From positions 1 to 43,689 of IMG/VR virus record IMGVR_UViG_3300045988_038444: a stretch of 43,689 nt of DNA. The stretch is one strand, 5' to 3'. The DNA is from a virus. Taxonomy: Duplodnaviria; Heunggongvirae; Uroviricota; Caudoviricetes. Positions 20,760 through 24,895 of this stretch are shown piece after piece. The position numbers were made by a program, and so were the translations under genes. Position 1 is the first letter of the stretch; each line of letters starts with the position of its first letter. Below the pieces are notes generated by a model. That model had not been told where the DNA came from and did no database searches. It saw only the letters and a list, made by a program, of their open reading frames with translations.

Positions 20760-21181
20760 TGATTAAACCTCACCATTATTCCGGCTTTTAATATAGCACG
20801 TTCGACAAACCCGGAAGGTGTCTGTGTACTGCTACCACCATTGAGAACCCCAATGTAAGGAACGTTGTTAGTAATATGCAGTTCCTGACCATTAACTTTA
20901 ATACTGCTGATAGTGACTGTATCCTGTTCGATACGTGCTTTACTGGCTTCAACATTACCTGTTGGTGTATCAGGACTATTAGCGGGTTGCCCCTGATCGA
21001 ACCACCAGTTGTTGCTTGCCCAGCCACTCAATATTGGTGTACCATCAGGAGGCTCACTTATGAGTATGTTACGTAGTGTTAAAACATATCTAATGACTTG
21101 ACGATCCGTAAAATCTTGTAAGTCGGCTTTTATGTCTTTAAACACTCCAGTAATACGATTTATATCATTGATTTTGCTAGT
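20756..21181 (-). CDS. Head-tail joining protein (putative)
   Basis: Track ORF 20756..21250; start moved to internal Met 21181 (MTSKINDINR...) because the 5' extension collides with the divergent plus gene. Confidence 0.35.
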   Translation of the reverse strand, partial: TSKINDINRITGVFKDIKADLQDFTDRQVIRYVLTLRNILISEPPDGTPILSGWASNNWWFDQGQPANSPDTPTGNVEASKARIEQDTVTISSIKVNGQELHITNNVPYIGVLNGGSSTQTPSGFVERAILKAGIMVRFNQ

Positions 21182-21206
21182 CATTGACAAACCTAAAGGT
21201 AGAAAA

Positions 21207-22103
21207 ATGGGCGGTAAAAGACTAACCAAAGAACAACTAGAGCATAACATAAAAGATATTTGTCAATCAAAAAATTACAAATTTATAAAATGGAAAGACG
21301 GGTTTAAAAACAAAGAATCACGAATTATTTTATCTTGTGTTACACACGGGGAATGGGACACTAAATGTTATCATTTTTTGAATGGTTCTGGTTGTCCGAT
21401 CTGTGGTGGAACACGAACCACAAAAGGGTTAAGAATTGCACAGATTAAAGACAGTTTAACAAATTCTAAATCAAAGTTTATTAAATTTAAAACTAATTTT
21501 CAAAATGGAAATTCTGTTTGTTTGCTGAGCTGTATTGATCATGGTGGATGGGAGACAACAGTCAATAGACTAATCTTTACATCTGTTGATTGCCCGTTGT
21601 GTATAACGAATAGACAGAAAACTAAACAAGAACGAGAAATTGAAATAACAAATAGATGTAAAGAAACAGGGTTGTTTTTTAATAAGATATTCGACGAACA
21701 TCCGACATGGAAATCTAAAATATCATTAAAGTGTTCAACGCATGGTGATTTTGTTACAACAATTAATTCTTTTCTTAGTAAACAAAAAGGTTGTCCAAAC
21801 TGTAGTAAAACAGGGTTTAAAGCTGGTAAGTATGCAACACTTTATGTCTTGCGGTCCACATGCGGTCGTTACGTTAAAATAGGTATCAGTAATTGTGTAG
21901 AGCAAAGAATTAATACACTTCGTAGAAAAACACCATTTGATTTTCAAGTAATAGAAAAATTGAATGGACACGGGGCAACCATTCGTTCACTTGAAAAAGA
22001 TTTTCATTCTCATTTTGAATCTGCAGGATTAACCGGGTTCGATGGTTGTACAGAGTGGTTAAAATGGAATCCAAATATAACCACTCTGATACGGATGTTA
22101 TAG
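21207..22103 (+). CDS. T5orf172-domain (GIY-YIG-like) protein with zinc-ribbon-like repeats, second copy
   Basis: Start taken at ATG 21207 (MGGKRLTKEQ...). Repeats with HG...GCPxC modules and C-terminal TLYVL...VKIGIS...TEWLKW. Confidence 0.65.
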   Translation: MGGKRLTKEQLEHNIKDICQSKNYKFIKWKDGFKNKESRIILSCVTHGEWDTKCYHFLNGSGCPICGGTRTTKGLRIAQIKDSLTNSKSKFIKFKTNFQNGNSVCLLSCIDHGGWETTVNRLIFTSVDCPLCITNRQKTKQEREIEITNRCKETGLFFNKIFDEHPTWKSKISLKCSTHGDFVTTINSFLSKQKGCPNCSKTGFKAGKYATLYVLRSTCGRYVKIGISNCVEQRINTLRRKTPFDFQVIEKLNGHGATIRSLEKDFHSHFESAGLTGFDGCTEWLKWNPNITTLIRML

Positions 22104-22481
22104 TTATACCGCTCCAACAGGATGAATAAATGCCATATCATCCCCTAACAATCGTGGGTTTTGACGATCAAGAAGGCGATATTCTTTACCACGTTCATCA
22201 ACCACAACATCACCCCGATCAGGAACAAATCGTGGTTCAAAACTCTGACTATCCATAATTACCATCGTTGTGGTTATTCTGGTCATAGTAGTCGGATCCC
22301 ACTTTTCTAATGGGTAAATATAACCACGACACGTATGCGATTCAGTAACGGTTGTACCCGGTAATGTAGGATTAGACGGGTTGGGAACTGTTATCACACG
22401 TTTTACCGTCAAATCCTCACCTACTTCAGCAAGTGCACGAGTAACACCTTTCAGGACACTTTGACGTTTGTCTGCCATCAC
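22104..22481 (-). CDS. Head-tail connector / head completion protein (putative)
   Basis: 125-aa ORF, position. Confidence 0.35.
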   Translation of the reverse strand: MMADKRQSVLKGVTRALAEVGEDLTVKRVITVPNPSNPTLPGTTVTESHTCRGYIYPLEKWDPTTMTRITTTMVIMDSQSFEPRFVPDRGDVVVDERGKEYRLLDRQNPRLLGDDMAFIHPVGAV

Positions 22482-22888
22482 CGTTCACCCTCGTTAAGTG
22501 CACGACCACCGCTTTCAAGTGTTACAGGTGGGTTGTCGAACTGACCACGTTGAATAGCAGGTTGCATACCAGCGCCAGTTAATGTAGCTCCACCAACACC
22601 CATAAAACTACCTAACAAACCGCCACCTGAATCAGCGCCAGTATTAATACGTAAAATAAAATCTTTTTTAAGTTTATTCCAGGCGTCTGCTGACTGACTA
22701 CTGCTGAGTGAGATCGGACCTACTTTAATGTCAGTATCGTTGCTGGCAATAGACGCCATATAATCACAGAGAGCGACGCAAATACTGAGAGGATTTGTAT
22801 AACCGTTGTCAATGTACCACTGAATTTGTTCATCAGTAACATCAGGGACACTGATCAAATAACGAATACCTTCAACTGTAATAGCCAT
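22478..22888 (-). CDS. Structural protein (putative head-tail adaptor)
   Basis: Track ORF runs to 23062 but the extension reads through a terminator hairpin; start taken at ATG 22888 (MAITVEG) after aggtga. Confidence 0.4.
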   Translation of the reverse strand: MAITVEGIRYLISVPDVTDEQIQWYIDNGYTNPLSICVALCDYMASIASNDTDIKVGPISLSSSQSADAWNKLKKDFILRINTGADSGGGLLGSFMGVGGATLTGAGMQPAIQRGQFDNPPVTLESGGRALNEGER

Positions 22889-22927
22889 GTGATCACCTGT
22901 GAGAAATGTTTTCGTTATATTAGCACG

Positions 22928-22953
22928 AAAAAAAGCCGTCTTAAACAGACGGC
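22928..22953 (-). terminator. Rho-independent terminator (gccgtc-tgtttaa-gacggc plus T7 on the minus strand)
   Basis: Plus strand shows A7 then gccgtcttaaacagacggc; lies about 40 nt upstream of gene start 22888. Confidence 0.55.
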
Positions 22954-23161
22954 AAATGGCTCTGGGTGATAATGAGGGTTTTACATAACTGGTCATCCAC
23001 ACCTGACGTCCCAACATACCCCTATGCGTGACACGTGAATAACCAGTTATGTAAAACGACACGCAGTTCAGGATGTTTCACAACATGCTTTACCCACGAT
23101 TTGCGGCTTTCCCGCCAGCAAGATAAGGATCACCTCCTTATCAGCGAGTGTTTGGGTTGTG

Positions 23162-23205
23162 GCGGTTGGAATCGAACCAACTCCCATCGGTGCGATTCCA
23201 ACCGC
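23162..23205 (-). other. tRNA-like structured element: 13-bp perfect inverted repeat, T-loop-like GTTGG-TTCGATT-CCAAC on the minus strand
   Basis: gcggttggaatcg (23162-23174) and cgattccaaccgc (23193-23205); minus strand carries a consensus T-arm followed by CGCCACA, but no canonical anticodon arm could be folded by eye. Confidence 0.25.
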
Positions 23206-23459
23206 AGTACGCGCAGCGGTCCGCTACATGACTAGTATTTTCACGGTCGCCTATCTGCTAGCTCGCCATTGAGCTTCACCACAACGGAAAGAGCACTGGA
23301 ACTTGGGCTGAGTATTACCGCATGTCTTTCGACTTCGAACCAAGGCTGACATTACCCAATGCTCTTACCTGTTATGTGCCGGTTACGTTTATCCGGCGTC
23401 TTTCGACCGATTAAGTGATAGTGTCTGCTATGCAGTTCTGTCACTGACTTAACAATAGG

Positions 23460-23813
23460 TCAAGAATAGTTATATGTCAAGCCTTGTGATTCACACCATT
23501 TAGCAGCGGCACTTTTACTACTAAACGATTCTGAATTCATCGGCATACCCATAACATAAACATTATAGGTTTTTGGCGCATCACGTCGGATTTCAGCCGC
23601 AGTGGTTGATGCCGATTCTTCGGTTGCTACAGTCACTGGTTCTTCAACGGTCGCAGTAGCTGGTTCAATGTGGCGCATACGCACAAGGGCGTTTAAAACA
23701 GCCGGGGTAGCTTTTGATGTTGATACTTTATCGCCAGCGGACATCTGTTTACCGTTCCACAGCATCGGACGGGTGAAAACATATTTCAGTGACGGATCAT
23801 ATGAATTACGCAT
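23460..23813 (-). CDS. Hypothetical protein downstream of the major capsid gene
   Basis: Track ORF 23460..23867; start moved to ATG 23813 (MRNSYDP) after gagg because the extension encodes the terminator hairpin. Confidence 0.4.
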   Translation of the reverse strand: MRNSYDPSLKYVFTRPMLWNGKQMSAGDKVSTSKATPAVLNALVRMRHIEPATATVEEPVTVATEESASTTAAEIRRDAPKTYNVYVMGMPMNSESFSSKSAAAKWCESQGLTYNYS

Positions 23814-23828
23814 GATTTTAACCTCATG

Positions 23829-23856
23829 AAAAAAGGGGCAGCATAAGCCACCCCTT
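23829..23856 (-). terminator. Rho-independent terminator after the major capsid gene
   Basis: Minus strand GGGGTGGC-TTAT-GCTGCCCC (two G.U pairs) followed by T6. Confidence 0.5.
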
Positions 23857-23875
23857 AATGATATCACAGTTGTTA

Positions 23876-24895
23876 TTAAACCGCGTCGTAGAACAGAACG
23901 CCCAGGTCAGGTGCAACCATCTGAACATCAATGGCAAATTCCGCTTCAACGAAATTACCACGACGGCCTTCGACACCCGGATAGGTACGGATAGACGGAC
24001 CGTTGTTAACGCCCAGACCGATGAACTCGTTCCACACGAAGCCCGCAGCCGCAACAGGTTTCATATTGCCAACAGTCGGTTCAACATAGTTGAGCATCAG
24101 CACACCAGTTTTAGCAAACCGGAAGTCTGACAGCGGATTGCCGTTACTGTCTTCAACGCCATCAGCAGCCATGTTGACCACAGACTGCATGATTTCCAGT
24201 TCGTCAACTTCCAGCAGTGCAGCCAGTGCCTGTTTAGTCACGATCCCAGGGTTCTGAGTGGTAGAACCACCGTTAATACGGTCAATAACAGCCGGGCTAC
24301 GGGTCAGTGCGTCATACACGTCCAGCGTCATCAGTGCTTTGTTCCAGCGACGACCACCGGATGCCAGAGAGAACGCAACACGACGTGACAGGATATCACC
24401 AATCGGATCGGCATTCGCATTAGACCATTTCAGGAATCCACCCGTGGACGGAGACGAGCCTTTACCCTGGAAATCAAGACCCCATTTACCAGCGGTCAGG
24501 AATTTTTCAGCAAAATCCACTTCTTTGTTGATCAGCAACGCATCTGTGGTTACTGCTGACGCTTCCATATCCAGTTGCTGACCGTTTTGAACGTTTGCAC
24601 GTTTTTTGTCAGAAATAAAGATACGGATCGCATCGTCATCAACGGTGTAACCCTGGTTTTTGGTTTTGTAACCAATAGTATTAGCAACACCATCTTCGGC
24701 ACGTTTGGAGTTAACCGGACGACCGAAATAACCTTTCGGGTAAGTCAGGAATTTACCAGCAGCCTGGTTAACAGGAACTACCGGGAAATAACGAGTACCG
24801 ACAAACAGTGACGTATCCTGCCAGTAACTTACAGAAAAGTTAGACAGGAATGTATCTGGTGCGCCAACGTCGCGAAAATTCTGTTTGTAACTCAT
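23876..24895 (-). CDS. Major capsid protein (putative)
   Basis: 339-aa ORF between scaffold-like gene and a terminator, typical position; no motif-level confirmation. Confidence 0.6.
   Translation of the reverse strand: MSYKQNFRDVGAPDTFLSNFSVSYWQDTSLFVGTRYFPVVPVNQAAGKFLTYPKGYFGRPVNSKRAEDGVANTIGYKTKNQGYTVDDDAIRIFISDKKRANVQNGQQLDMEASAVTTDALLINKEVDFAEKFLTAGKWGLDFQGKGSSPSTGGFLKWSNANADPIGDILSRRVAFSLASGGRRWNKALMTLDVYDALTRSPAVIDRINGGSTTQNPGIVTKQALAALLEVDELEIMQSVVNMAADGVEDSNGNPLSDFRFAKTGVLMLNYVEPTVGNMKPVAAAGFVWNEFIGLGVNNGPSIRTYPGVEGRRGNFVEAEFAIDVQMVAPDLGVLFYDAV

Follow-up and report, generated by a model that had tools for sequence, protein, structure and literature searches.

RNAs C and D of phage T4 (species 1 and 2, rnaC/rnaD) are small stable RNAs that are encoded in the tRNA cluster and undergo maturation by tRNA-processing enzymes, and YrlA, a bacterial Y RNA-like RNA found in Salmonella and in phages, is a tRNA mimic that is bound by Ro/Rsr. 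The STAB-SD of cryIIIA in Bacillus thuringiensis is a Gram-positive 5' stabiliser that acts against 5'-exonuclease, and the T-arm and acceptor strand that form the 3' portion of a tRNA gene are often found in phage attP sites. To our knowledge, no function has been described for the part of the phage lambda leader that carries the P1/P2 element considered below. Searches of the open-access literature found nothing specific on the lambda late-leader RNA, phage tRNA-like RNAs or enterobacterial phage tmRNAs. For mycobacteriophage DS6A, a "TLD-only" ssrA has been reported, which was proposed to perhaps titrate SmpB (PMC4131195).

Results

Boundaries, promoter, terminator and overall fold of the gap

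The window, i.e., the whole 43,689-nt stretch of DNA that was analysed, comes from a 9NA/Sasha-type phage in which a gap at 22889-23459 interrupts the minus-strand head-to-tail gene cluster. The earlier description of this gap as 570 bp of noncoding DNA is borne out: the upstream minus-strand ORF stops with TGA at 23462-23460, which is the gap boundary (23460), and the downstream gene starts with ATG at 22888-22886, just after its own Shine-Dalgarno (SD) sequence AGGTGATCAC. Four ORFs within the gap, on both strands, have no PHROG or Pfam match, and a protein-coding reading of the gap was therefore rejected. A GIY-YIG-type homing-endonuclease-like gene lies approximately 800 bp from the gap. 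The features of the locus, in the order of the minus strand, are as follows.

23452-23480, minus strand: sigma-70-type promoter TTGACA-N17-TATTGT (scan, 10/12 matches; predicted start near 23445)
23378-23408, minus strand: leader mini-module, two hairpins GGUC-GAAA-GAC(G) (GNRA loop) and GCCGG-AUAAACGUAA-CCGGC (MFE structure)
23280-23376, minus strand: long helix P1/P2, about 18 bp, with a variable tip (covariation in homologues)
23153-23285, minus strand: tRNA-shaped domain, about 130 nt, five helices (pair counts in 12 distinct homologues)
23162-23205, minus strand: perfect 13-bp inverted repeat with arms GCGGTTGGAATCG (23205-23193) and CGATTCCAACCGC (23174-23162)
23062-23142, minus strand: trailer motif ("module B") of three hairpins H1-H3 (layout common to about 20 homologues)
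23068-23121, minus strand: micro-ORF, TTG plus 16 codons plus TGA (23070-23068), overlapping H2 and H3
22978-23057, minus strand: long hairpin with a perfect 16-bp stem, GUUUUACAUAACUGGU / ACCAGUUAUGUAAAAC (sequence reading; MFE and centroid structures)
22928-22953, minus strand: intrinsic terminator GCCGUCU-GUUUA-AGACGGC followed by U7 (terminator scan)

The -35 hexamer of the promoter lies within the last codons of the upstream gene, the end of which the promoter overlaps. The pattern TTGACW-N17-TATTGT is also present in Sasha, PDP46, 9NA, Klebsiella phage phi_KPN_H2 and the IMG/VR relative L228, so that the promoter of the cassette is kept in three phage genera, and Skate-type phages have TTGACA-N17-TAGATT ahead of their cassette copies. 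The terminator, already proposed at this position in the earlier note, is recovered by the scan; it has the properties of a Rho-independent terminator (a 7-bp stem with five GC pairs, a 5-nt loop and U7) and lies 40 nt upstream of the ATG of the next gene. It is annotated in the record of phage Sasha and conserved in 9NA and phi_KPN_H2.

The minimum free energy of the 522-nt minus-strand stretch is -197.5 kcal/mol, compared with -156.5 +/- 6.7 kcal/mol for 100 dinucleotide shuffles (z = -6.16), none of which folds as well. The RNA between promoter and terminator is approximately 520 nt in length and is a mosaic of at least five modules. The earlier suggestion of a small structured RNA in place of empty spacer is thus upheld as regards structure, by the fold z-score, the covariation described below and the presence of a promoter and a terminator, but not as regards size, because the RNA is a composite of approximately 520 nt.

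The leader mini-module and the long hairpin flank the other modules. The 31-mer of the former is found at 93-100% identity in Skate-type phages and in Klebsiella Ackermannviridae, and also downstream of other cassettes (L108 and L128). The long hairpin encloses approximately 48 nt containing UAGGGGUAUGU; it is present in the Sashavirus relatives and absent from 9NA and phi_KPN_H2, and the UAGGGGUAUGU motif is found again in the 3' modules of Skate-type phages.

The long helix P1/P2

The 5' strand of P1/P2, CAUAAC(A)GG-U-AAGAGCAUUG (23376-23357), faces the 3' strand CAGUGCUCUU-U-CCGUUGUG (23298-23280) across a variable apical domain of 58 nt (23356-23299), which contains a GUC-GAAA-GAC hairpin and the T-loop-like GGUUCGAAG and is 95-99% identical in the N4-like phage PhAPEC5 and in Klebsiella phages SopranoGao and RCIP0081. 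Among 80 distinct strand pairs, 97.4% of the positions are paired over the 18 pairs of the helix and double-sided changes occur at 11 of the 18; none of 500 shuffles reaches any of these measures, and slid controls are 36-68% paired. The sample was gathered by the exact 17-mer TGCTCTTTCCGTTGTGG, which is found in at least 120 IMG/VR contigs and which limits the variation on one strand. G-U pairs make up approximately 115 of the 1440 P1/P2 cells; as the opposite strand would have A-C mismatches in their place, the structure is specific to one strand, the one that also carries the flanking genes.

A provisional family, "P1/P2 helix + closed insert", is defined by CAYAAC(A)GGUAAGAGCAUUG pairing with CAGUGCUCUUUCCGUUGUG around a variable tip, followed immediately by a closing stem GUGGUG...CRCCACAAC around a variable insert. 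These elements are found in the window at 23376-23357, at 23298-23280 and at 23285-23277 / 23164-23156.

The tRNA-shaped domain

The closing stem of the domain that follows P1/P2 is acceptor-like, with 9 bp (GUUGUGGUG/CGCCACAAC) and a CCA after it. Enclosed are a D-arm (23274-23261) with the D-loop AAUGGC, a 4-bp stem (23251-23215) with an inner hairpin that has CUAG in its loop, a 5-bp arm with the 7-nt loop AAUCGCA (23202-23186), and a T-arm, GUUGG-UUCGAUU-CCAAC (23181-23165), followed by CGCCACA. In 12 distinct homologues, 97.5% of the positions are paired over 27 pairs, six pairs are changed on both sides (in the T-arm and the 4-bp stem), and the covariation score is reached by none of 500 shuffles. 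The inner hairpin, where the MAFFT alignment is out of structural register, was excluded from the pair counts and judged by single-sequence folds. All five helices are recovered by single-sequence MFE prediction in three homologues.

The acceptor, D and T helices, a T-loop of the type UUCRANY and a D-loop with GG, as in a canonical tRNA, are all found in the window. No usable anticodon loop (U33 and a purine at 37) is present; the sole arm with 5 bp and a 7-nt loop has A33 and C37, which indicates that the domain is not a decoding tRNA. The sequence of this loop is CAGCGCA in most homologues. The sole wobble pair of the domain is U6:G67, and the lack of a G3:U70 pair indicates that the domain is not an AlaRS-type tmRNA domain. 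The nucleotides at -2/-1 can pair with positions 73/74, an arrangement unfavourable for canonical RNase P cleavage.

The likeness to phage tRNAs (RF00005) thus comprises the acceptor-type closing stem, the D-arm with GG, the T-arm GGUUCGAUUCC and the 3' CCA; the cassette domain differs in an extra arm of approximately 50 nt, the 7-nt loop NANCGCA and the 9-bp closing stem. It also differs in that ARAGORN rejects all cassette copies and reports no gene in the whole window, and in that the T-arm of the window is out-competed, in predicted folds, by the 13-bp helix described below. The best clan match of the window copy in Rfam is tRNA-Sec, with 17.8 bits (E = 2.4) against a threshold of 47. The copy in Pantoea phage PdC23 passes the Rfam tRNA model RF00005 with 37.4 bits against a threshold of 29, in an alignment that takes a 45-nt insert as the "anticodon loop", and one E. 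coli prophage copy is labelled by PGAP as a tRNA-Arg of 127 nt. The cassette is at times mislabelled by annotators, either in this way as a 127-nt "tRNA-Arg" or through hypothetical proteins called across it.

A 13-bp inverted repeat peculiar to this phage

The 13-bp inverted repeat with a T-arm and CGCCACA, which had been noticed earlier as a hairpin upstream of the SD sequence, is present and perfect; however, the T-arm and CGCCACA are the 3' part of the complete domain of approximately 130 nt and not an isolated hairpin. The second arm of the repeat includes the T-loop; the repeat joins the arm that has the 7-nt loop to the T-loop and T-stem and competes with the T-arm in predicted folds. 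The arm reads GCGGTTGGAATCG in the window and GCGATCGGCATCG in the relatives L228 and L083, and three clustered substitutions raise the complementarity of the arms from 10/13 to 13/13. The predicted energy of the window domain is -60.6 kcal/mol for the long hairpin versus -45.8 kcal/mol for the family cloverleaf, a difference of approximately 15 kcal/mol, whereas the corresponding values for L228 are -48.0 and -45.8 kcal/mol. This variant occurs in no other fetched locus. The repeat is a derived peculiarity of this phage, and by the predicted folds it outcompetes the T-arm.

The trailer motif, the 16S rRNA match and the micro-ORF

H1 of the trailer, GAUAAGGA-GGUGA-UCCUUAUC (23142-23122), is followed by AUCUUG and displays the 16S-complementary GGAGGUGAUC. 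H2 is GCGG-GAAAG-CCGC (23115-23103), and H3 (23098-23062) has the apex AUGUU-GUGA-AACAU with a GNRA loop. The 14-nt match to the 3' end of 16S rRNA, noted earlier at 23127-23140 of the plus strand, lies within H1 (minus strand, 23140-23127); it reads GGATCACCTCCTTA on the plus strand and is present as a single copy in the window even when two mismatches are allowed, a tolerance at which shuffles average 0.14 copies. The arithmetic expectation for the exact 14-mer is approximately 3e-4 in 2 x 43.7 kb.

Variation among approximately 20 homologues keeps the hairpins. The H2 stems are GCGG/CCGC, ACAG/CUGU, ACGG/CCGU, CUCG/CGAG or GUAG/CUAC, and the H3 apexes are AUGUU/AACAU, ACGUU/AACGU or ACGCA/UGCGU. 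Between the window and 9NA, TGT>CGT and ACA>ACG together exchange a single H3 base pair, one change on each side. The SD-like core varies by wobble-compatible transitions only: GAGGUGGUCC in RCIP0081, GGGGGUGAUUC in L099 and GGAGGUGAUUC in L031. The trailer often stands directly 3' of a tRNA end, in T4-size phages it lies between two tRNA genes, and it matches no Rfam family in the related loci scanned.

The earlier note read the minus strand as an SD sequence followed by a micro-ORF, and both are present: after the SD sequence TAAGGAGGTGATCC, a frame of 17 codons opens with TTG 23121, which lies 11 nt downstream of GGAGG and 5 nt downstream of the last base of the 14-mer. The reading frame is not conserved. 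It stops after 6 codons in RCIP0081 and L142 and after 8 to more than 19 codons elsewhere, L031-type members are without a start codon, and the loop of H2 varies in length by 2 nt among members, which shifts the frame. An SD-led gene or a leader peptide would start 5-9 nt after the SD core and keep its ORF length, frame and residues among homologues, which the micro-ORF does not do. Judged from these comparisons, it is not a conserved coding sequence, and the SD sequence therefore belongs to the RNA motif and not to a gene. Ribosome binding by the SD-like sequence of H1 is plausible from its complementarity.

The cassette shares with STAB-SD a strong SD sequence that opens no conserved ORF and is kept for its pairing with the 3' end of 16S rRNA. 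The cassette differs in that its SD sequence is half-buried in a hairpin and its host is enterobacterial, and a stabilising or binding role here would be putative.

Relatives and distribution

Conservation in collinear relatives, which the earlier note had proposed as a check, separates the modules. The SD motif is retained in Sasha, Sergei, Solent and 9NA, whereas the tRNA-like and apical domains are missing or replaced in the otherwise collinear Sasha, Sergei, Solent, PDP46 and 9NA, which indicates that the tRNA-like domain is accessory and dispensable for this phage type. The content of the slot in close relatives is very different, ranging from approximately 200 to approximately 920 nt. 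Klebsiella phage phi_KPN_H2 has a tRNA-Ser(GCU) in the same slot, and by sequence reading L116 and L031 have tRNA-Arg(UCU)- and tRNA-Met(CAU)-like sequences behind the same helix at the tRNA-like position. The cassette thus resembles phage tRNA islands in occupying the slot of the relatives' tRNA-Ser, -Arg and -Met on the same strand and with the same type of promoter.

The promoter, the tRNA-like domain and the trailer are shared by the sister phage L228, which in addition has a tmRNA-type tag module. This module, AUAAAU-GCA-AAC-GAN...UAA with ANDENYALAA-like tags, is found upstream of the cassette in L228 and approximately 20 other loci and gives a local beta_tmRNA match (E = 3.4e-5). A tag frame (a resume codon GCN after an A-rich stretch) is absent from the gap of the window, which stands outside the loci with the tag pattern.

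Much of the conservation across phages takes the form of 90-99% identity between unrelated phages, which indicates recent horizontal transfer as much as selection. Pieces of the cassette are found again in hundreds of enterobacterial phages that are not related to one another, lambda among them. The cassette family is present in 175 of 5426 E. coli genomes (approximately 3% of complete genomes), and every E. coli locus inspected lies in the late region of a prophage, between Q and holin. In phage lambda, the same P1/P2 helix and closing stem lie at approximately 44,789-44,940, directly after tR' in the late leader, and the lambda closing stem GUUGUGcUG/CAgCACAAC contains a compensatory pair. 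The cassette of lambdoid phages is without a promoter of its own and starts approximately 8 nt after tR', and is therefore part of the late mRNA leader there. The lambda late leader (pR'-6S RNA-tR'...S) differs from the present locus in that its insert is not tRNA-like and in that it has neither an SD trailer nor an own promoter.

Comparison with known RNA families

At gathering thresholds, Rfam 15 (4227 models) gives no match in the window, and nothing significant is found at 22400-24000 with E values up to 10; the Y RNA families of Rfam return no match in either search. The helix module in the related loci scanned is covered by no non-tRNA Rfam family. The ARAGORN and Rfam searches of the gap that had been suggested earlier thus produce neither a tRNA nor a family at threshold, and as ARAGORN and Rfam identify nothing for the cassette in the window and approximately 20 related loci, known RNA families were rejected. 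A weak isrP match (29 bits) lies outside the gap, over the terminator of the capsid gene.

The likeness to tmRNA (ssrA) lies in the combination of a tRNA-like domain with an mRNA-like stretch, the tag module being present in L228 and approximately 20 loci; as in the TLD-only ssrA of DS6A (PMC4131195), the tRNA-like domain of the window is tag-less. The window differs from tmRNA in being without a tag module and in having a domain that contains a D-stem, lacks G3:U70 and is contiguous rather than built from two ends. In the tag-bearing loci, the tag module is 5' of the acceptor strand, a topology unlike that of any tmRNA. No tmRNA is detected by ARAGORN, and in the tag-bearing loci the 5' GAUAG has no 3' partner with NCC except for one match 1.1 kb downstream in L107. 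A canonical tmRNA was therefore rejected, given the missing G3:U70 and the single L107 match as an acceptor partner, and the term "tmRNA-related" was kept.

YrlA likewise couples a conserved long helix to a tRNA-like module that has T- and D-arms. Its RNA ends, however, exit via the anticodon-stem side, whereas in the cassette the exit is through the acceptor stem and the long helix forms a 5' hairpin of its own. T4 rnaC/rnaD resemble the family in genomic context alone, through the trailer motif inside the tRNA clusters of T4-size phages; the one BLAST search, run with a T4-size contig, matched solely Salmonella phage Arash, which is uninformative as to homology with T4-type stable RNAs. The Pas sRNAs of EPEC prophages (E2348/69 loci), located near holin and tail genes, were considered and rejected, being on the opposite strand and without similarity to the gap.

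Discussion

The gap is very probably a conserved structured-RNA cassette and neither spacer nor a gene. The fuller account, to which we assign a probability of roughly 0.55, is that it forms an autonomous noncoding RNA transcription unit of exchanged modules that is processed after transcription. A host-type promoter, a structured RNA of approximately 520 nt and an intrinsic terminator would make up the unit, the modules of which appear to be exchanged among many enterobacterial phages and to follow the order of a helix with a variable tip, a tRNA-shaped domain ending in CCA and the three-hairpin trailer. The genuine tRNAs at the position of the tRNA-shaped domain and the frequent linkage with tmRNA-type tags indicate that the slot is a tRNA/tmRNA-related RNA island. 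The primary transcript may be matured by the host tRNA-processing machinery, with an RNase P cut at the junction of helix and acceptor stem and 3' trimming at or after CCA, which would yield a stable hairpin RNA, a non-decoding tRNA mimic and a trailer RNA. The extended SD sequence of the trailer would pair with the 16S 3' end, apparently without starting a conserved gene, and could tether 30S or protect the RNA. Taken together, we infer that the function is probably that of a stable RNA processed by tRNA enzymes and acting on the translation apparatus. The absence of the tag module and the predicted 13-bp hairpin that overrides the T-arm suggest that the copy in the window may be partly degenerate.

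It is possible, if rather unlikely, that the cassette acts in cis on the downstream connector and tail genes as a processing, stability or ribosome-standby element of the mRNA that runs into the gene at 22888. Cleavage at the helix or the tRNA-like part would then set the 5' end, and the 5'-proximal SD-like hairpin would capture 30S, shielding the message or supplying ribosomes downstream, by analogy with the Gram-positive STAB-SD element or with processing by tRNA punctuation. In every case the cassette has the orientation of the highly expressed late genes that begin just after it (the holin gene of lambdoid prophages, the major tail gene of Skate-type phages and the connector gene of the window), the promoterless lambdoid cassette is part of the late mRNA leader, and host 3' processing would make a trailer that directly follows a tRNA or tRNA-like 3' end 5'-terminal. 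In the window, however, the cassette has its own promoter, and the strong terminator (7-bp GC-rich stem plus U7) separates it from a next gene that itself has an SD sequence; T4-size phages place the trailer between two tRNA genes with no mRNA downstream, and several short variants end straight in a terminator, as free-standing sRNAs do. Alternatively, the slot may be a recombination hot spot for tRNA/tmRNA cassettes that holds a decaying, non-functional remnant in this phage, which we regard as unlikely. The differing slot contents of close relatives (approximately 200 to 920 nt), the absence of the tRNA-like domain from Sasha and 9NA, the loss of the tag module and the lack of an anticodon loop would all agree with decay, as would the three clustered substitutions that destroy the predicted T-arm in the window, for which quasipalindrome mutation is proposed; the homing-endonuclease-like gene nearby is consistent with frequent local gene conversion. 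Decay does not account well for an intact promoter, P1/P2 helix, trailer and terminator, or for the trailer being kept, with the exact SD core, in every relative examined; the family-wide compensatory changes argue for selection on structure, and a fold with z = -6.2 is unlike decaying sequence.

Translation of the micro-ORF is a distinctly improbable explanation, whether as an attenuator, in which the SD sequence would drive the 17-codon ORF and ribosomes on H2/H3 would govern whether the downstream hairpins and the terminator form, and with them the read-through into the tail genes, or with the peptide itself as the product. In its favour, SD and UUG have a fixed spacing (AUCUUG) in most members, some ORF always follows the SD sequence, the 9NA/Sasha/Klebsiella lineage keeps 17 codons with variation at three Gly-codon third positions, and a terminator lies within 120 nt. 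The ORF nevertheless ranges from 6 to more than 19 codons, shifts by 2 nt relative to H2, is without a start in L031-type members and has no protein-family match; its UUG is 11 nt from GGAGG, half of the SD sequence is paired in H1, loop positions and compensatory exchanges in the stems account for the sequence changes, and in T4-size phages a tRNA and not a terminator follows the motif. A site acting at the DNA level, such as an attP-type tRNA fragment or another recombination or packaging site, is barely credible. The slot is recombinogenic and an attP is often the 3' part of a tRNA, but here both halves of the tRNA-like domain are present and the frequent G-U pairs make the helices strand-specific, as expected of RNA. 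The attP reading was also rejected for the reason that the E. coli matches inspected lie in prophage late regions (Q-holin) and none of those listed overlaps a host tRNA gene, the only tRNA label among the listed matches being the prophage copy itself.

Beyond the processed transcription unit that we favour, a bolder and rather doubtful extension is that the family constitutes an unrecognised class of phage RNA that manipulates translation or ribosome rescue, with a non-canonical, differently permuted tmRNA-like RNA as its full form and a decoy as its tag-less form. The full form, as in L228, the N4-like PhAPEC5 and Klebsiella Ackermannviridae, would consist of the tag module, the helices, a closed tRNA-like domain and a trailer that binds the anti-SD sequence. 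In the tag-less form of the window, the tRNA mimic and the 16S-complementary hairpin might serve as a decoy for SmpB, 30S or tRNA-targeting defence nucleases.

If the cassette is real, it would represent a large mobile family of structured phage RNAs, present in at least 120 viral contigs, approximately 3% of complete E. coli genomes and lambda; it has gone unannotated because neither tRNA finders nor Rfam detect it. "Empty" gaps in structural gene clusters could then be independent RNA genes with their own promoters, and the late leader of lambda would contain a concrete, testable element. The family would additionally link tRNA-like scaffolds and an unusually extended, conserved motif complementary to the anti-SD sequence with tmRNA-type tag modules that had not been reported before from enterobacterial phages, and phages may widely possess an accessory function that interferes, through RNA, with translation, ribosome rescue or defence directed at tRNAs.

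The gap holds a promoter-to-terminator unit

The window phage is a Sashavirus-type (9NA-like) siphovirus in which the minus strand carries all genes around the 570-bp noncoding gap (22889-23459). The features in and around the gap, read on the minus strand, are as follows.

23876-24895, minus: major capsid protein (PHROG 1005)
23460-23867, minus: small conserved protein, 135-aa ORF directly upstream of the gap (phrog_19242)
23480-23452, minus: strong promoter-like site, TTGACA-17-TATTGT
23280-23376: module A, a long helix
23153-23285: tRNA-shaped domain
23062-23142: trailer motif, hairpins H1-H3
22953-22928, minus: terminator
start at 22888, minus: conserved 136-aa protein, first gene past the gap, followed by tail completion and tube genes

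Scanning recovers the terminator proposed in the earlier note and adds the promoter-like site, and these predicted signals delimit an autonomous promoter-to-terminator unit. Every feature listed in the earlier note lies where it was placed. The suggestion that the gap encodes a structured RNA instead of spacer is borne out: the 522-nt RNA from the promoter-like site to the terminator folds with z = -6.16, and its strong structure includes evolutionarily supported helices on the sense strand. The 14-nt match to the 16S rRNA 3' end is exact (plus 23127-23140; TAAGGAGGTGATCC on the minus strand) and occurs once in the window, and the micro-ORF behind this Shine-Dalgarno (SD)-type sequence is, as described, a TTG-started, 17-codon minus-strand frame.

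The conservation in relatives that was proposed for examination holds for the gap flanks, where identity with Salmonella phages Sasha, Sergei and Solent and with E. coli phages Bas82, PDP46 and AVIO78A reaches 99%, but no phage-collection record covers more than 67% of the gap itself because its middle differs between relatives (171 phage records matched by BLAST, none at full coverage). The gap is a mosaic whose parts turn up in phages of other kinds. The segment 23156-23409 is ~90% identical to Skate/seszw-type Salmonella siphoviruses, where it adjoins a tRNA-Ile ahead of the major tail gene, and the sub-segment 23275-23380 shares 95-99% identity with the N4-like coliphage PhAPEC5 and Klebsiella phages SopranoGao, SJM3 and RCIP0081. 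Klebsiella Ackermannviridae also have a 31-nt piece of the leader, and the 3' half of the gap is common to 9NA, SP069 and Klebsiella 9NA-like phages. In the same slot, Klebsiella phage phi_KPN_H2 carries the same promoter, the same helix module, a bona fide tRNA-Ser(GCU), the same SD-bearing trailer and the same terminator, in that order.

Several neighboring features were also observed. The phrog_19242 profile matches the 135-aa ORF (23463-23867, minus) from residue 19 on only, and the annotated homologue in Sasha is 117 aa long; translation probably starts ~18 codons downstream of the first GTG. A weak Rfam isrP match (23829-23978, minus; 29.1 bits, E = 0.0035, under the threshold of 45) covers the capsid-gene 3' end, a strong intrinsic terminator (23856-23833 and U-tract) and the next ORF start, and is probably explained by the terminator hairpin. 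A 323-aa ORF (21132-22103, plus), opposite in strand to all surrounding structural genes and missing from the collinear region of Sasha, contains a CapR homology domain (E = 3e-18) and a GIY-YIG-type MUG113/T5orf172 domain. Lying ~800 bp from the gap, this ORF probably represents a homing-endonuclease-like insertion that could be a source of the local mosaicism.

Module A is a covarying long helix present in lambda

Module A consists of two near-invariant strands, CAYAAC(A)GG-U-AAGAGCAUUG and CAGUGCUCUU-U-CCGUUGUG, which pair mutually and enclose a tip of 40-90 nt that varies strongly. A 17-mer of the 3' strand occurs exactly in at least 120 IMG/VR contigs. Across 80 distinct strand pairs from all fetched loci, a sample gathered through the exact 17-mer, which limits variation in one strand, 97.4% of the cells of the 18 base pairs are paired, and both sides have changed in 11 of the 18. 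None of 500 shuffles reaches any of the five measures, and slid registers are 36-68% paired. The variant CUAUC(A)GG...CCGAUAG for CAAC(A)GG...CCGUUG comprises four compensatory pairs at once, and AAGGGCG...CGCCCU for AAGAGCA...UGCUCU is also observed. G-U pairs, which make up ~8% of the cells, would be A-C mismatches on the opposite strand; this ties the helix to the strand that carries the flanking genes, as it should if the structure forms in RNA.

Phage lambda carries module A and the closing stem at ~44,789-44,940 (490-640 of the fetched locus), in the untranslated late leader between Q and S, beginning 8 nt past the U-tract of tR' (the 6S RNA terminator). The lambda closing stem GUUGUGcUG/CAgCACAAC includes one compensatory pair, and many lambdoid prophages hold module A at the same position. 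Pas sRNAs of EPEC prophages, encoded close by in lambdoid prophages, were considered and rejected as antisense and unrelated.

A tRNA-shaped domain follows the helix

Directly past module A, a closing stem formed between GUUGUGGUG and CRCCACAAC, usually with CCA next, encloses a second variable insert. What it encloses in the window is a tRNA-shaped RNA with the following elements.

D-arm: GCUC-AAUGGC-GAGC
Middle: 4-bp stem with an inner hairpin (CUAG in its loop); 5-bp arm with a 7-nt loop; 4-nt linker
T-arm: loop UUCGAUU

In 12 distinct homologues (Skate-type phages, Pantoea phage PdC23, IMG/VR contigs and E. coli prophages), 27 pairs are 97.5% paired, with both sides changed in six (three in the T-stem, three in the 4-bp stem), a covariation score reached by 0 of 500 shuffles. 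The inner hairpin is always kept with wholly different stems (CCG/CGG, CAG/CUG, UCACGG/CCGUGA, AUCCAUG/CAUGGAU and UUUUGCGG/CCGCAAAA). Against the Rfam tRNA model, the PdC23 copy reaches 37.4 bits, above the threshold of 29, in an alignment that treats it as a class-II tRNA whose "anticodon loop" is 45 nt long; RefSeq/PGAP labels the copy in E. coli prophage Eco_70239 (2516-2642 of the fetched locus) a 127-nt "tRNA-Arg". Some 175 other E. coli genomes carry this sequence without annotation, and in phage records hypothetical proteins are called over the homologues (e.g., PDP46_0046, Skate_053/054). A decoding tRNA is ruled out, as the only 7-nt loop is NANCGCA (A33, C37). In the gene-finder and Rfam searches that the earlier note recommended, ARAGORN rejects every tRNA-shaped copy examined, and no Rfam 15 family matches the window cassette. 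A G3:U70 pair is absent from the domain.

The 13-bp inverted repeat noted in this region is indeed perfect, lies 21 nt upstream of the SD and holds the consensus T-arm and CGCCACA. It is not a family feature: the closest relatives with the same domain, the IMG/VR sister phage L228 and L083, carry GCGAUCGGCAUCG where the window carries GCGGUUGGAAUCG, and three substitutions lift a quasi-palindrome with the T-loop/T-stem from 10/13 to 13/13. Template-switch mutation classically leaves such a signature, a cluster of changes that makes a quasi-palindrome perfect. Judged by this comparison, the repeat is real but derived and private to the window phage, which suggests a compromised, or re-purposed, tRNA-like fold there. 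The predicted domain energy in the window is -60.6 kcal/mol with the long hairpin versus -45.8 for the family fold; the L228 values are nearly equal (-48.0 versus -45.8).

At the same position, other loci carry an L-shape mimic with complementary loops (GCUGA/UCAGC) and covarying stems; genuine-looking tRNA-Arg(UCU) (L116) and tRNA-Met(CAU) (L031), as read from sequence; short hairpins (Sasha); or an unrelated insert (lambda). In PhAPEC5, a 1.2-kb tract without credible genes (600-1850 of locus L007, minus) holds a tag module, the helix module, one tRNA-Ile and at least four more tRNA-like units that bear a T-arm, end in ...CCA and are not called by ARAGORN, and looks like an array of tRNA mimics.

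The Shine-Dalgarno sequence is part of a trailer motif

The trailer motif consists of three hairpins, the first base lying 11 nt past the CCA.

H1: GAUAAGGA-GGUGA-UCCUUAUC, carrying the 16S-complementary sequence, followed by AUCUUG
H2: GCGG-GAAAG-CCGC
H3: bulged hairpin capped by the GNRA loop GUGA

A pattern scan of IMG/VR (GGAGGTGAT-N4-ATCTTG) returns many chance matches and also a clear family, spread over diverse phages, that keeps H2 and H3 while their stem sequences differ; the motif has no match in Rfam. The trailer typically lies 3' of a tRNA or tRNA-like end (after tRNA-Ser in phi_KPN_H2 and locus L252). In five T4-size IMG/VR contigs (L184 1771-1850, L200, L211, L225 and L167), it lies between two tRNA-Met genes, so the SD-bearing motif extends beyond small siphoviruses. 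In these contigs, the GGAGGUGAUC hairpin and the small hairpin behind it sit inside large tRNA clusters.

The micro-ORF is unsteady in length (6 codons in RCIP0081 and L142, 8-19 elsewhere), its start codon is absent from L031-type members, and a 2-nt difference in the H2 loop (GAAAG versus GAAUAGA) shifts its frame. Between the window and 9NA, TGT>CGT and ACA>ACG are two sides of one H3 base pair, and three "synonymous" Gly codon changes are the second nucleotide of the H2 loop. On this pattern of change, the micro-ORF is not conserved, and it and the SD are assigned to the conserved trailer motif. The partner of the paired part of the SD varies (AAGGA is paired in the window, GUGAU in phi_KPN_H2), and the SD-like core is kept regardless. 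In the differing cores GAGGUGGUCC, GGGGGUGAUUC and GGAGGUGAUUC, all changes in the 16S-complementary core are wobble-compatible transitions versus 16S, which points to, but does not prove, pairing with the 16S 3' end; among members with a differing core, RCIP0081 alone came to light without use of the SD sequence.

Related loci encode ssrA-like tags

Upstream regions contain a highly conserved tag module, GAUAGUUUUCG..GCGACUUUGCGG..UUUUAGAAACUGACCACAAAGAUAAAU-GCA-AAC-GAN-(7 codons)-UAA, in short form ...AAAGAUAAAU-GCA-AAC-GAN...UAA. In phages of the Sashavirus, Skate, N4-like and Ackermannviridae types, it precedes module A, the helix module, with a hairpin and a pseudoknot-like element in between.

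L228 (Sashavirus relative), 60-560 of a 1007-nt stretch, minus: tag module
L007 (PhAPEC5), ~1720-1690, and L012 (Klebsiella phage KZag1), ~1680-1650, minus: tag module
L039, L044, L047, L076, L081, L092, L097, L103, L107, L124-L126 and L252: tag module, further loci

The encoded peptides (ANEEAYLMVA, ANDNTFLAVA, ANEEMYLAVA, ANDDVVLMAA, ANEERFLMAA and similar; 16 variants at 22 loci) are plainly related to ANDENYALAA, the ssrA tag of E. coli. The beta_tmRNA (E = 3.4e-5, a local match) and tmRNA_permuted (E = 0.004) models align to the tag-module stretch. L228 shares the promoter, tRNA-like domain and trailer of the window, and its tag module and additional structure occupy ~470 nt versus ~60 nt of leader hairpins in the window. 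No canonical tRNA-like domain (pairing ends, G3:U70, NCCA) was found in the tag-bearing loci, where the search for a 3' acceptor partner gave one match, 1.1 kb downstream in L107, and ARAGORN calls no tmRNA in those examined. These RNAs of enterobacterial phages appear to be tmRNA-related but non-canonical and unrecognized so far. The window-type tRNA-like domain occurs with the tag module in only 2 of 16 loci, which makes the tmRNA link contextual, not obligatory. In KZag1, Rfam STnc100, a prophage-associated Hfq sRNA family, matches L012 73-287 (minus; 52.9 bits, threshold 47), ~600 nt downstream of the last examined part of the RNA-island tract. In a 2014 tmRNA census, phage ssrA was known only from mycobacteriophages and Bacillus phage G, and the authors remarked that a "TLD-only" version in DS6A might titrate SmpB (PMC4131195).

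Nature and possible role of the cassette

The cassette lacks conserved coding capacity, and we put the probability that it is a conserved structured-RNA cassette, neither spacer nor gene, at about 0.85. A cis-acting leader for the downstream genes is favored in lambdoid phages, whose element is without its own promoter; the window cassette has its own predicted promoter and terminator, and we regard this explanation as unlikely. The derived repeat would fit a decaying relic in the window phage, which is somewhat more doubtful still, and a leader-peptide attenuator, which would place the function in the unsteady micro-ORF, is highly improbable.

The structured-RNA cassette works like a tRNA-like or tmRNA-related phage RNA, yet departs from tRNA in its anticodon loop and in being passed over by gene finders, and from tmRNA in tag, G3:U70 and topology. 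We rate it as a variant among the phage tRNA-like/tmRNA-related RNAs. No prior description of the lambda late-leader element or the enterobacterial tag modules was found in the searchable, incomplete literature; large catalogues of candidate viral RNAs exist (PMC10690425).

The modules of the cassette are exchanged among phages, and the slot is used for tRNA and tmRNA-type genes. In the full reading, which we hold to be slightly favored, RNase P and the enzymes that process tRNA 3' ends would mature the transcript, yielding a helix RNA, a tRNA mimic and a trailer RNA, and the extended SD of the trailer would bind the 16S 3' end. A ribosome-rescue or decoy role in particular seems rather improbable; more broadly, the cassette may have an accessory role at the translation, ribosome-rescue or tRNA-defense interface.
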